This document shows, piece by piece, positions 3,386 to 14,265 of a stretch of 64,000 bases of DNA (within the stretch, counting starts at the first letter, position 1; each line of letters begins with the position of its first letter). The translations under genes were made by a program, and so were the position numbers. The stretch comes from a bacterium (lineage in GTDB: Bacteria > Electryoneota > Electryoneia > Electryoneales > Electryoneaceae): NCBI GenBank assembly GCA_963669175.1, contig OY769902.1, positions 2,144,001 through 2,208,000 on the forward strand. The letters run 5' to 3'. The notes under the pieces are model-generated. The model saw nothing but the letters and a program-made list of their open reading frames with translations. It was not told the origin of the DNA and ran no database searches.

Positions 3386-4051
3386 CTAATTCACCTGGCG
3401 ACCATCGAACAGACGGACGGTGCGTGCGGTTTTCTCGGCCAGACGTGCATCGTGCGTGACCATGACAATCGTCGTCTTCTCTTCTTCATTCAACTTCAGC
3501 AGGATATCCATGATCTCGTTACCCATCTGGCTGTCCAGGTTTCCGGTGGGCTCATCGGCGAGCAGCATGGTTGGATTCCCCGCGATGGCGCGCGCCACAG
3601 CCACTCGCTGCTGCTGACCGCCGGAAAGCTGAGATGGCCGATGATGCACACGTCCTCCCAGGCCGACACGCTCCAGCGCGAGCAGGCATCGTTCACGTCG
3701 TTGTTTCCCCGGCATCTTCCGGTAGAGAAGAGGGATTTCGACATTATCCAGCACACTGATATCATTGATCAGGTGGAATTGCTGGAAGATGAAGCCGATG
3801 TGTTCGTTGCGGAACATGGCCAGTTTACGGTCGCCGCTGGTTTTTAGATCGTTGCCGTTAAATCGGATGGCGCCATCTGAAGGGATATCAAGCAGTCCCA
3901 TCAGGTTCAGCAGGGTGCTTTTCCCGCAGCCGGACGGGCCCATGATCGAGATAAACTCACCATCCCCGACCTGCATGTTGATCCCGGACAGGGCGAGGGT
4001 TTCAATCCTGTCCGTGCGGTATACCTTTTCTACATTTTCCAATTCAATCAT
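3386..4051 (-). CDS. ABC transporter ATP-binding protein (LolD/MacB-like)
   Basis: Walker A GPSGCGKS, signature LSGGQQQR, Walker B LLADEPT, H-loop VTHD. Confidence 0.95.
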   Translation of the reverse strand: MIELENVEKVYRTDRIETLALSGINMQVGDGEFISIMGPSGCGKSTLLNLMGLLDIPSDGAIRFNGNDLKTSGDRKLAMFRNEHIGFIFQQFHLINDISVLDNVEIPLLYRKMPGKQRRERCLLALERVGLGGRVHHRPSQLSGGQQQRVAVARAIAGNPTMLLADEPTGNLDSQMGNEIMDILLKLNEEEKTTIVMVTHDARLAEKTARTVRLFDGRQVN

Positions 4052-11014: not shown

Positions 11015-11480
11015 ATCGCTCGAGATCCCCGATAGCAGCAAACAGACGCTGCTTCGGGGATGACATATTCGGGGATGACATATATGATGACAAGTATGAA
11101 GCGAGAAGGCGCTTGGCCCGACTCCCCGCGCAGGCGGGATCAACTGTCGGGATTGCATCGCTCGAGATCCCCTATAGCAGCAAACAGACGCTGCTTCGGG
11201 GATGACATATATGATGACATATATGAAGCGAGAAGGCGCTTGGCCCGACTGCTCGCGCAGGCGGGGATCGCCTGTCGGGATTGCATCGCTCGAGATCCCC
11301 GATAGCAGCAAACAGACGCTGCTTCGGGGATGACATATTCGGGGATGACATATATGATGACATGTATGAAGCGAGAAGGCGTTTGGCCCGACTGCTTGCG
11401 CAGGCGGGGATCACCTGTCGGGATTGCATCGCTCGAGATCCCCGATAGCAGCAAACAGACGCTGCTTCGGGGATGACATG
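11015..11480 (+). repeat. Tandem array of ~130-142-bp REP-containing units (about 3.4 copies)
   Basis: ATCGCTCGAGATCCCC recurs at 11015, 11157, 11286, 11428 with near-identical intervening sequence. Confidence 0.9.
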
Positions 11481-11683
11481 CGGGGGCGGATCAAGCAGTC
11501 AATAGGAGACAACAAGTTTGTCGCTTATTCACTCAAAAGGATATCTCATTACACATTATCTACCATAACAACAACTGAATGACTGGCATCAAGTGGATTC
11601 ACGAGTGTACATTTACGCAGCTTTGAGTCAGCATACGACTCAAGCTGGTGAACCGCAAAGACACACCAACCATACGGGACAAC

Positions 11684-11773
11684 ATGCGTATCCATTGTTT
11701 CAGAAAAAGCTGACAGGTGCCTGCGAGAGCTGGATCGCTCTCTCCCTGTCGTAAAACTTTGGATTCCCGCTAA
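11684..11773 (+). CDS. Putative selenocysteine-containing small peptide MRIHCFRKS(U)QVPARAGSLSPCRKTLDSR (alternative GTG start 11648 gives 41 aa)
   Basis: In-frame TGA at 11711-11713 followed by a SECIS-like hairpin; frame continues with a second Cys to TAA 11771-11773; directly upstream of the double-cubane reductase gene. Confidence 0.55.
11711..11750 (+). promoter_or_regulatory. Bacterial SECIS-like hairpin
   Basis: GACAGG/CCTGTC lower stem, GAGAGC/GCTCTC upper stem, apical loop UGGAUC 17 nt after the UGA with G at loop position 2. Confidence 0.5.
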
Positions 11774-11833
11774 CCCGCCCGGCGTCCTCCGGTAGCGGTG
11801 GCAGGGAATCCTGCACCGTCAACAGGAGGAACC

Positions 11834-13126
11834 ATGGCCGAAGATTACCGGCAGATGTGGACTGACCTGGGGCTGGACCTTGAGATGCACGACGCATTGC
11901 TCGGCGCCCTGGGAACGATGTACCAGGAAACTTTCCTCACCCAGAAGGACCGTCCCGAAGGCATGGGCTACTTCGATTTCGTGATGAGCGAAGTCCACGG
12001 CCTGCGTATCAAGGAACTAGTGGATGCACAAGCGCAGGGCCGCAAAGTGGTCGGCTCGTTCTGCACCTTTGTGCCGGAAGAAATCGTAGTCGCCCTCGAT
12101 GGTATCAGTGTCGGTCTGTGCGCCGGGGCTGAATTTGCCACGGATGAAGCGGAGAAACTGCTGCCACGCAACACCTGTTCCCTGATCAAGGGGGCGTTCG
12201 GGTTCGCATTGGCGCGGGTTTGCCCGTACCTCGCTGCCAGTGATGTGATCGTGGGCGAGAACACCTGTGACGGGAAAAAGAAATCCTACGAAATTTTCAA
12301 GGATATCAACGGTGTCAAGCGTCTGTATGTGATGGATTTGCCGCAGATCAAGAACGGTAACGGCCGGGCGTTACTCCATGTTGAGTTCCGCAAATTCGCC
12401 GAAATGCTGGAAGAGCTGACCGGCAAAAAGCTGACGGTGGAGAACCTGAAACGTGGTATCGAGATCGTCAATGCCAAGCGCGCCGCCATGCACCGTCTAA
12501 ACAAGCTGCGTGCTGCTAATCCGTCGCCGATTTCCGGTCTTGACGCCCTGCTGGCCAACCAGGTCTATTTCTACGATGATCCGGTCCGTTTCACCGCTTC
12601 CGTGCACAAGATTTGTGATGAGCTGGAAGAACGCATTGCGGCGAAAAAGGGTGTGGCGAAAGAGAACGCGCCACGTATCCTGATATCCGGTTGCCCGATG
12701 GCAGTGCCGAACTGGAAACTGCCGATGATTGTTGAAAGTACCGGTGCGGTGATCGTAGGCGAGGAATCCTGTGTCGGCGAACGTGGCACCCAGAACCTGA
12801 CCGATGATACCGGCGAGACGCTGGAAGAGATGCTGGACGCCATCACCGACCGTTACATGAAGATTGATTGCGCCATTTTCACGCCAAACGATTCACGTCT
12901 GGATCATGTGCGCCAGATGGTGAAGGCGTACAACGCGGACGGCGTTATCCATTACGGCCTTCAGTTCTGCCACCCGTACCAGATCGAGGCGGGCCCGGTG
13001 GAACGTGCGCTCGAGGCGGATGGCATCCCGGCGCTACGTGTCGATACCGATTATTCGCAGGAAGATGTTGAGCAGATCCGTACACGGGTAGAAGCGTTTG
13101 TTGAAAGCCTGGCGGATCGAGCATGA
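11834..13126 (+). CDS. Double-cubane cluster reductase / 2-hydroxyacyl-CoA dehydratase-family protein (HGD-D)
   Basis: Motifs FCTFVPEE, NTCDGKKK, EESCVGER, IDCAIF, QFCHPY, RVDTDYS; AGGAGG RBS before ATG 11834. Confidence 0.85.
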   Translation: MAEDYRQMWTDLGLDLEMHDALLGALGTMYQETFLTQKDRPEGMGYFDFVMSEVHGLRIKELVDAQAQGRKVVGSFCTFVPEEIVVALDGISVGLCAGAEFATDEAEKLLPRNTCSLIKGAFGFALARVCPYLAASDVIVGENTCDGKKKSYEIFKDINGVKRLYVMDLPQIKNGNGRALLHVEFRKFAEMLEELTGKKLTVENLKRGIEIVNAKRAAMHRLNKLRAANPSPISGLDALLANQVYFYDDPVRFTASVHKICDELEERIAAKKGVAKENAPRILISGCPMAVPNWKLPMIVESTGAVIVGEESCVGERGTQNLTDDTGETLEEMLDAITDRYMKIDCAIFTPNDSRLDHVRQMVKAYNADGVIHYGLQFCHPYQIEAGPVERALEADGIPALRVDTDYSQEDVEQIRTRVEAFVESLADRA

Positions 13127-13857
13127 TAAGTGCAGGGATCGATATCGGGTCGAGGACGATCAAACTGGCGCTCCTGGAAGACGGTAAGATCGCCTCGACC
13201 CGTGTCGAGGATACCACGTTTGACCCGCTGGCAGTCTGCCGTAAGCTACTCAACGGCGCCAGCTATGATCGCCTGGTTTGCACCGGGTACGGACGTCGTT
13301 TGTTCGCTGACCACTGGACGGACGCGGAAACGATCACCGAGATCAAGGCGGTGGCGCGTGGGGTACATGAACAGTACCCGGGCGCTCGCGTAATCATCGA
13401 TATCGGTGGGCAGGACAGCAAGGCGGTATTGTTGGATGCCAACGGACGTGTGGTGAAATTCGCCATGAATGACCGTTGCGCTGCCGGGACCGGACGTTTT
13501 CTCGAGGTCATGGCGACGGCATTATCCTACGGCTATCCCGAGTTCATGCAAGCGGCGGAAAAGGCGGAACAGAGTGTGCAGCTTTCCAGCATGTGTACCG
13601 TTTTCGCCGAGTCGGAAGTGATCTCGCTGGTGGGACGTGGCGAACCACGTGACCGTATCGCGCTGGGCATTCATCATTCCATCGTGAAACGAACCAAGAC
13701 GTTACTGCGCTCGATTCCGTTGGATGGGGAAATCGTGTTTACAGGTGGGGGAGCGTGGAACACCTGCCTGCGTACCCTGTTGGAACAGGAGCTGAAGCAC
13801 CCGGTGGTTGTACCCGAGAATCCCCAGGTCGTCGCCGCGCTGGGGTGCGGGTTGTAG
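13123..13857 (+). CDS. ATP-dependent CoA-substrate enzyme activase (HgdC/BadF-BadG ASKHA family; DCCP-R-like)
   Basis: GIDIGS, TGYGR, IDIGGQDSK, MNDRCAAGTGRF, SSMCTVFAESE motifs; ATGA coupling. Confidence 0.92.
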   Translation: MISAGIDIGSRTIKLALLEDGKIASTRVEDTTFDPLAVCRKLLNGASYDRLVCTGYGRRLFADHWTDAETITEIKAVARGVHEQYPGARVIIDIGGQDSKAVLLDANGRVVKFAMNDRCAAGTGRFLEVMATALSYGYPEFMQAAEKAEQSVQLSSMCTVFAESEVISLVGRGEPRDRIALGIHHSIVKRTKTLLRSIPLDGEIVFTGGGAWNTCLRTLLEQELKHPVVVPENPQVVAALGCGL

Positions 13858-13970: not shown

Positions 13971-14060
13971 TTCTTATTCAAATAGCGAGTTAAGTCCTTC
14001 AGCAGTTGATCCGATTGCTTCTCGTATAGTGCAACTGTCAACTTTTATTGTTTATTCCAC

Positions 14061-14265
14061 GAGATCCCCGATAGCAGCAAAGAGACGCAGCTTCGGGGAT
14101 GACATATAAGGGGGGATGGGCTGAGTGGTGTGACATGCGTAAGGGAGGATGTTATGTCTGTGGGGATGAAATATGGAGGGGAATAACATGAGGGTGTGTT
14201 GATGACATGGGTGGGGATGACATGGGTGTCGGGAAATGTCATGGGTGTGTTGATGTCATGGGTGA
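14061..14265. repeat. REP copy plus degenerate GATGACATGGGTG tandem repeats
   Basis: GAGATCCCCGATAGCAGCAAA...CTTCGGGGATGAC matches the 11015-11480 unit. Confidence 0.65.

Follow-up and report, generated by a model that had tools for sequence, protein, structure and literature searches.

The leader ORF and the gene pair behind it

We analysed a 64,000-nucleotide stretch of bacterial DNA (assembly GCA_963669175.1, contig OY769902.1, positions 2,144,001 to 2,208,000; hereafter the window, in which coordinates are counted from 1), where a short open reading frame (ORF) with an in-frame UGA codon lies ahead of a gene pair for a double-cubane reductase and its ATPase activase. The features of this leader and of the two genes are collected in Table 1. 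An earlier reading of the bare sequence (the original prediction) had taken the ORF either for a CxxxxU selenopeptide, U being selenocysteine (Sec), that serves the reductase as redox partner or substrate, or for a selenium-sensing leader.

Table 1. Features of the leader region and of the genes downstream (window coordinates).
Feature	Position	Strand	Basis or remark
Leader ribosome-binding site GGGA, weak	11676..11679	+	Sequence
Leader ORF	11684..11773	+	ATG, 9 codons, UGA, 19 codons, UAA; encoded peptide not conserved
UGA sensor codon, predicted Sec	11711..11713	+	Sequence; relatives
SECIS-type hairpin	11712..11750	+	Fold; upper stem 11725-11730 with 11737-11742, loop 11731-11736
Predicted ON hairpin A:C	11761..11811	+	Spans leader stop; anti-Shine-Dalgarno segment in its top, Shine-Dalgarno sequence free
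Anti-Shine-Dalgarno segment UCCUCC	11785..11790	+	Pairs with 11825-11830 in OFF fold
Predicted OFF hairpin C:D with anti-Shine-Dalgarno:Shine-Dalgarno pairing	11785..11830	+	Forms if arm A is unavailable
Shine-Dalgarno sequence AGGAGG of reductase	11824..11829	+	Sequence
Double-cubane cluster protein, 430 aa	11834..13126	+	NF040772; PDB 6ENO/7YYL
ASKHA ATPase activase, DCCP-R type, 244 aa	13123..13857	+	TIGR00241; PDB 7YYL chain E; overlaps reductase stop

The ORF, its in-frame TGA and its TAA (11771-11773) lie where the original prediction had placed them, as does the reductase ATG (11834), 60 bp past the leader stop. Of the two starts proposed, ATG 11684, which gives the 29-codon form, is the likelier because it has the GGGA, weak as this is, while GTG 11648 has no ribosome-binding site. 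The leader letters, including the TGA, are identical in contigs from two samples of one study.

Bacterial Sec insertion sequence (SECIS) elements are hairpins directly after an in-frame UGA, with the loop 16-37 nucleotides (nt) away and a G within the first two loop bases. The leader hairpin fits this definition, as had been foreseen: its loop of 6 nt begins 17 nt past the UGA and has G at position 2, and the distance is 17-19 nt in relatives. Over the span 11711-11760 the fold has a free energy of -18 kcal/mol (z = -3.15, with 0/200 shuffles as strong), while two alternative spans gave z of only -1.3 and -1.1. We regard the hairpin as a SECIS-type element, at which SelB binding and Sec insertion are predicted from the model. 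When both strands of the 5.45-Mb genome were scanned for the whole layout, three matches were obtained, of which the window copy has the strongest hairpin; the other two have weak hairpins and unrelated genes downstream and were taken as chance. By inspection, one of these two precedes a CHASE2/adenylate-cyclase-like gene. A promoter scan found 2 sites against 1.9 expected, and an Rfam scan gave two chance-level matches, none on the leader.

The gene identities given at the outset agree with the profile scores. The reductase is by sequence a double-cubane cluster protein (DCCP), scoring 472.5 bits on NF040772 (cut-off 350) as the sole match in the genome and matching PDB 6ENO/7YYL over its full length (E = 2e-136). 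Its Cys 77, 96, 115, 145, 313, 346 and 379 align with the seven cluster cysteines of 7YYL; the literal Cys motif of the preprint (bioRxiv 10.1101/2022.07.06.499078) is unmatched because the first spacing is 18 instead of the printed 19. The adjacent activase, as in the DCCP/DCCP-R system, scores 210 bits on TIGR00241 (cut-off 125) and matches 7YYL chain E (E = 2.8e-52), and an Fe8S9 cluster and electron uptake from the ATPase are predicted.

The Sec machinery, whose presence had been named as a check, was found: the genome carries tRNA-Sec (selC) together with selA, selB and selD above cut-offs. The selD gene (G000:C1:4678417-4679343, locus L004) is of the Sec form, has a hairpin of its own and is located a long way from the DCCP genes. 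The DCCP and activase genes stand alone, with no selenium-supply gene adjoining them in the window.

The layout recurs before related DCCP genes

We assembled a genome set of 82 loci (the top 80 among 414 DCCP relatives in GTDB genomes, the single one found among 60 kin of this genome, and the window) and a metagenome set from the best 80 of 436, of which 67 had enough upstream DNA. The leader layout precedes DCCP in 27/82 genome loci, window included, and in 13/67 metagenome loci, several of which are near copies of genome-set examples. The resulting 40 examples, selected on TGA, were reduced to 34 non-redundant ones. These share a start, a UGA 119-148 nt upstream of the downstream gene's start, a SECIS, an in-frame stop 19-24 codons further on, and two mutually exclusive folds. 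The first stop in the UGA frame falls at about -50 to -75 in 34/34, against 3/34 and 2/34 for the other frames, a count partly built into the selection of the examples. Among the 60 kin of this genome DCCP was found in only one, without this leader, and no leader of this kind was seen in the 200 nt preceding E. coli K-12 yjiM.

In the genome set, a hairpin follows 29/79 TGAs at -150 to -110, an interval chosen from this set itself, against 15/246 elsewhere in -250 to -30; the corresponding counts in the 67 metagenome loci are 14/55 and 15/220. An in-frame start with a Shine-Dalgarno (SD) sequence precedes the UGA in 26/29 (genome) and 14/14 (metagenome) of these TGA-hairpin sites, and an open stretch of 17-26 codons follows it in 27/29 and 13/14. 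The loci contain 35,847 TGAs in total; such a hairpin follows 1,494 of them, and 67 show both further features, a number that includes the true leaders. The leader layout is more than chance. Alignments A1 and A3, for which the UGA was a selection criterion, show no variation at this codon, and the upper stem of the SECIS covaries (in A1, 84% of cells paired, 15 double-changed cells, 0/500 shuffles as high).

In leaders of this layout (class I), the codon before the UGA is Thr in 13, Asn in 8 and Ser in 5 of 34 cases, mostly as ACC/AAC/AGC, and basic residues stand at -2 to -4; Thr precedes the UGA in other leader types as well. The residue before the UGA may tune termination or pausing. The final stop of the leader is itself UGA in 26/34, and in six loci with such an ending (L009, L051, L066, L098, L111 and L143) the spacing of the OFF hairpin that follows is SECIS-like.

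Two mutually exclusive folds are predicted to decide access to the SD

Segment C can pair back to the end of the leader (A:C) or forward (C:D), the latter extending into pairing of an anti-SD segment with the SD of the reductase gene. In an alignment of 17 sequences, 84% of A:C cells and 83% of C:D cells are paired (1/500 and 0/500 shuffles as high); the registers of both were taken from one member, a choice that favours them over slid controls. The SECIS, A:C and C:D helices are all kept with compensated changes. In an alignment-free comparison, cognate arms paired better than non-cognate ones in 33/34 examples for the SECIS, 28/34 for A:C, 24/34 for anti-SD:SD and 25/34 for C:D, whereas control segments reached 13/34, 13/34 and 15/34.

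With A:C held as the first-folding hairpin, the helix was longer than in shuffles in 25/27 loci, and the SD easier to open in 25/27. Once the ribosome is released and the nine bases past the stop are freed, the mean cost of opening the SD was 4.0 kcal/mol in the ON state and 11.9 kcal/mol in the OFF state, with shuffles at 5.6 and 6.6. The OFF value was higher in 34/34 examples, individually at p<=0.05 in 26/34, and lay at least 3 kcal above ON in 31/34, against 0/34 of the shuffle means. For the window, the costs were 6.2 and 12.6 kcal/mol, a difference that 0/40 shuffles matched. Applied unchanged to eight later matches of an RNA model (below), the measure gave a higher OFF value in 8/8.

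The stop codon sits on arm A, a modelled geometry that fits a fold selected by the ribosome. No terminator-like site was found between 11300 and the reductase start, and the predicted output is therefore translational.

The element goes with selenium-supply genes

With a covariance model (R1) we searched 151 genomes from the phylum to which genome G063 belongs, without selecting on the neighbouring gene. The search yielded eight new matches, with the UGA intact in 8/8, heading yedF in four cases, DCCP in two, selD in one and a Sec-lyase-like gene in one. Since these matches head yedF, selD and the lyase besides DCCP, the element follows selenium supply and not the reductase. Four further, weak matches of R1 (L198, L201, L202 and L178) were not leaders on inspection. 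One genome holds a second leader copy, before a DCCP paralogue (L200, G066:C4:101989-102134). A further model, R2, was built without the window copy from alignment A4, in which 3 of 39 matches are spurious reverse-strand ones, and it aligns the window's UGA, stop, SD and start in register.

Gene neighbourhoods, tabulated by tblastn, show selenium-supply genes 3' of the activase on the same strand in 11/27 leader loci of the genome set: selD, the Sec-lyase-like gene and yedF together in seven, and yedE, yedF-selD, lyase-yedF and yedF in one each. The Sec-lyase-like gene scores above the cut-off of TIGR01977 and below that of SclA. Selenium-supply genes also lie near 15/55 leaderless loci, which are richer in a selenium LysR-type regulator (5/55 against 0/27 leader loci) and in selB (8 against 1). 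This regulator is possibly an alternative control of the same genes. A LysR of the NF040786 type stands just upstream of DCCP in L014, L015, L034, L042, L082 and six metagenome loci, and adjoins DCCP in none of the 40 class-I leader loci, a small and related sample.

For 5/5 draft genomes checked, no selD was found besides the one headed by the leader. The selD genes of leader operons are of the Cys form in 7/8, which fits expression without Sec. The Sec-form selD of the present genome contrasts with these. The genes that would be controlled in relatives (selD, yedF, yedE and Sec-lyase-like) relate to the molecule sensed; in the window only DCCP and the activase would be controlled, and their link to selenium is correlative. 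According to the preprint text of Haft and Gwadz (bioRxiv 10.1101/2022.07.06.499078), 955/970 DCCPs occur in SelD genomes and the natural substrate is unknown. Lin et al. (PMC5322559), in the part of the article available, tie YedE, YedF, Sec lyase and the selenium LysR together, with an activase among the STRING partners.

The encoded peptide is not conserved

Among the 34 examples Cys stands at -5 from the UGA in 2, and the leader peptides share an amino-acid identity of 0.13-0.27 with no third-position excess. Nucleotide identity at the three codon positions is 0.38/0.30/0.31 before the UGA, 0.49/0.49/0.51 in the hairpin and 0.44/0.46/0.45 before the stop, compared with 0.91/0.95/0.69 in the DCCP gene. 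The residues that recur after U are, read from the sequence, what the hairpin spells. The 41-aa form has no homologue in the protein collection, in which lengths of 22-72 only were covered; with C for U the peptide has no NCBIfam or Pfam match at E<=1; and none of the inspected model matches has a Cys codon in place of the UGA. Of the marks of a new selenoprotein listed in the preprint text of Haft and Gwadz (bioRxiv 10.1101/2022.07.06.499078), at least 10 examples with TGA were found (34, and 8/8 model matches), whereas strong protein similarity through U, with conservative substitutions, and a conserved Cys aligned to U were not.

These results, together with the fact that the element can stand before yedF, selD or a Sec-lyase-like gene where no reductase comes next, speak against the CxxxxU selenopeptide of the original prediction. 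The conserved layout and folds favour its other option, the selenium-sensing leader. Absence of peptide conservation beyond the TGA had been set as grounds for abandoning the proposal; it is what we found, and it tells against the peptide and has no bearing on the leader. The element is likely, on the modelled folds, to be an RNA switch and not a functional peptide.

A resemblance to TsoY, suggested in the original prediction, did not hold up. TsoY is catalogued as NF047643 with the motif UxxV (PMC13188914, as far as its available text goes); the model has 366 positions and a cut-off of 250 bits, and it found no match in the genome at E<=10. The leader peptide has 29-41 aa and Pro as the third residue after U, so that the presence of a UGA is all the two have in common. 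Fusion of leader and reductase was likewise rejected: the leader stop and the downstream start are a whole number of codons apart in 13/34, about the chance rate, and the window's stop is TAA.

A proposed Sec-sensing translational attenuator

We propose that the short ORF is probably a ribosome-operated switch that senses Sec and is on when Sec is scarce. According to the model, when Sec-tRNA is scarce the ribosome would go no further than the UGA, some 50 nt short of the switch. The A:C hairpin, the first to fold during transcription, would then stay intact and hold the anti-SD inside, leaving the reductase SD free and the genes translated. When SelB and Sec-tRNA decode the UGA by means of the SECIS, the ribosome would continue for 19-24 codons and unwind arm A, so that segment C could pair downstream (C:D); once the ribosome has gone, the anti-SD would zip onto the SD and translation would be off. 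The selD findings would argue for this sign, since the enzyme on which Sec synthesis depends could not itself depend on Sec. Because the element elsewhere heads selD, yedF, yedE and Sec-lyase-like genes, the circuit would be a negative feedback on selenium supply, and the reductase and activase would together serve selenium supply, being produced when selenium runs short.

In known leader-peptide translational attenuators (ermC, cat/cmlA type), as in the amino-acid attenuators trpL and hisL, translation of a short upstream ORF picks between alternative RNA folds. The leader described here likewise has its own start and SD and, as computed, mutually exclusive folds of which one hides the SD. 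As with the amino-acid attenuators, the controlled genes would supply the molecule sensed. The sensor differs: in ermC, cat and trpL the ribosome stalls at sense codons or on a drug, whereas here it would be a recoded stop, with termination set against SelB-dependent read-through at one UGA. A trpL-type leader ends in an intrinsic U-run terminator; none was found here, and the output would be SD occlusion. We take the feature to be real; by analogy it would work like a leader-peptide translational attenuator, with this choice at the UGA as its sensor.

Two selenium systems invite comparison. In E. coli selAB, as described in the accessible text of PMC13449736, a SECIS-type hairpin reads the status of Sec-tRNA and SelB, with repression predicted when Sec is plentiful; situated 3 nt from the SD, it occludes that site itself and is without a leader ORF, whereas the hairpin of the window follows an in-frame UGA and would exert its effect on an SD about 75 nt distant, by way of a second switch. 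In T. primitia fdhF(Sec), decoding at UGA/SECIS also feeds back on expression, yet inside a selenoprotein gene and with no dedicated leader described, and the transcript is lower when selenium is scarce (available text of PMC3892789). That article also describes trp attenuation, and its authors state that an attenuator for a rare amino acid is unreported in nature. Haft and Gwadz noted the SelD link of DCCP, and the word 'leader' is absent from their preprint (bioRxiv 10.1101/2022.07.06.499078). A full-text literature search found no natural Sec leader attenuator, with subscription literature and supplements largely outside it and an earlier mention thus possible; nor does one appear in the available parts of PMC13188914, PMC8124441, PMC5389517, PMC10418091, PMC11955535 and PMC7609411.

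How bacteria gauge their Sec supply is poorly known; published models include a regulator of the LysR type, the hairpin of E. coli selAB and polarity within a single selenoprotein gene. If the proposal is true, attenuation would gain a new kind of sensing input, an on/off switch operated by stop versus recode at a single UGA, the leader could serve as a ready-made selenium biosensor, and the natural job of double-cubane enzymes would have a regulatory clue, with a role in selenium supply expected from their production under Sec shortage together with SelD, YedF and Sec lyase. We lean slightly towards a wider reading, in which a mobile UGA-SECIS leader serves in nature as the attenuator for the 21st amino acid, registering successful Sec insertion and, by flipping an anti-SD hairpin, shutting down a regulon of selD, yedF, yedE and Sec lyase, and in which DCCPs, orphan ATP-driven enzymes of low potential, are selenium scavengers that free selenide for SelD.

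Several observations weigh against the proposed switch. As to the folds, the energy test went through three formulations, having been reformulated twice. When folds were compared at equilibrium, with the ribosome placed at the UGA or the stop, only 11/27 loci showed the predicted direction, and with the ribosome on the stop and nine bases past it covered, the SD was buried above shuffles in only 10/27. The clear result requires that the ribosome be released and that arm A not re-pair, and ON is on average the state of lower energy (-38.4 against -34.3 kcal/mol). In L205, one of the eight model matches, A:C did not form in the nascent fold, and the window's own arms were no outliers in the cross-pairing test.

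As to the distribution, R1 missed the window copy and found no credible copy in this genome; R2 ranks the window copy first in the window, weakly (E = 0.19). The selD, selA, selB and Sec-lyase-like genes of this genome lie elsewhere without such a leader. The examples are kin, so that their counts are not independent: in a quick-search tree, from which L023, L041 and L052 were omitted as short, 24/26 leader rows fall inside one weakly supported open branch of 28. This branch includes the window's gene and carries the labels Myxococcota, Binatota, Acidobacteriota, Eiseniibacteriota and Pseudomonadota; just outside it lie one row labelled Zixiibacteriota and one labelled Spirochaetota. The presence of selA does not discriminate (24/26 leader genomes against 20/24 others). 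Finally, selenium limitation in T. primitia lowers transcript downstream of the UGA/SECIS, which is the opposite polarity (available text of PMC3892789).

Alternative explanations

The same sensor could work with the opposite sign, read-through switching the operon on and the enzyme being produced only under ample selenium, as might suit a role in handling a surplus or the possession of a Se-bridged cluster; the structure would be cleared, or translation kept coupled to transcription. The truncation of T. primitia fdhF(Sec) transcripts at the SECIS under selenium limitation offers a precedent (PMC3892789), a Se-bridged cofactor is a formal possibility according to Haft and Gwadz (bioRxiv 10.1101/2022.07.06.499078), and YedE may be an exporter in the view of Lin et al. 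(PMC5322559), each as given in the available text; the equilibrium fold test, moreover, favoured neither direction. Yet the fold left once arm A is freed buries the SD in 34/34, the leader has no terminator-like site, and the element heads the only selD found in 5/5 genomes, where a cell that needed Sec for its SelD could presumably hardly get going. We consider the reversed sign unlikely.

Selenium control might also bypass the SD switch and act through SelB/Sec-tRNA binding to the hairpin, through ribosome stalling or, once translation has ended at the UGA, through Rho-dependent termination or degradation of the mRNA. In E. coli, SelB-GTP-Sec-tRNA represses selAB by binding a SECIS-like element of the 5' untranslated region that has no leader ORF (available text of PMC13449736). 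Other DCCP loci have leaders of UGA and hairpin with a stop after 1-9 codons, and because of these long read-through is not the sole design. The SECIS of the window, however, ends about 75 nt before the SD, compared with 3 nt in selAB; relatives keep the in-frame start and a stop within arm A, and covariation is seen in each of the two competing helices. Such a route is quite unlikely.

The family could be real and this genome's copy a decayed or chance look-alike that does not work, as its weak leader ribosome-binding site, its scores (missed by R1, E = 0.19 with R2) and the single leaderless DCCP among 60 relatives would allow. We hold this to be improbable, given that every part is in register with R2, the hairpin has z = -3.15, the switch beats 40/40 shuffles, the layout occurs only 3 times in 5.45 Mb and the gene belongs to the leader-bearing branch. 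That the 29-aa product is a functional CxxxxU selenopeptide, as the Cys five residues before the UGA, the frame open past it and the unknown substrates of DCCPs might suggest, is highly improbable in view of Cys at -5 in 2/34, an identity of 0.13-0.27 with no third-position excess, no Cys-codon counterpart in the inspected matches, no database homologue, and the element's occurrence before non-DCCP genes. The ribosome-operated switch that is on when Sec is scarce remains our preferred explanation.

Other leader types and minor observations

Two further types of UGA leader were seen before DCCP genes. The second type, in genomes labelled Zixiibacteriota/FCB (L013:1600, L057:1402, L055:3829, L102:4851 and L019:3849), reads Tyr-Thr-UGA, with the hairpin loop 17-19 nt off and a stop 1-3 codons past the UGA; in 4/5 a segment further downstream is complementary to this loop. 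The third, before DCCP genes of Thermodesulfobacteriota-labelled genomes (L074:3788, L173:256, L011:3806, L135, and L082 upstream of 964), reads Gly-Phe-Thr-UGA, with an SD and start 7-8 codons upstream. A variant in L056 (about 3880-4000) has a strong SD, ten codons ending in Thr-UGA, a hairpin and a stop 14 codons on; it sits in the leader-bearing DCCP branch and was missed by the layout filters.

Upstream of the leader, a 143-bp unit is present in about three tandem copies (window 11017-11479) and holds a palindromic core like that of repetitive extragenic palindromes. One further such core lies just 3' of the activase gene (14057-14105), and 13 core matches occur across the genome.

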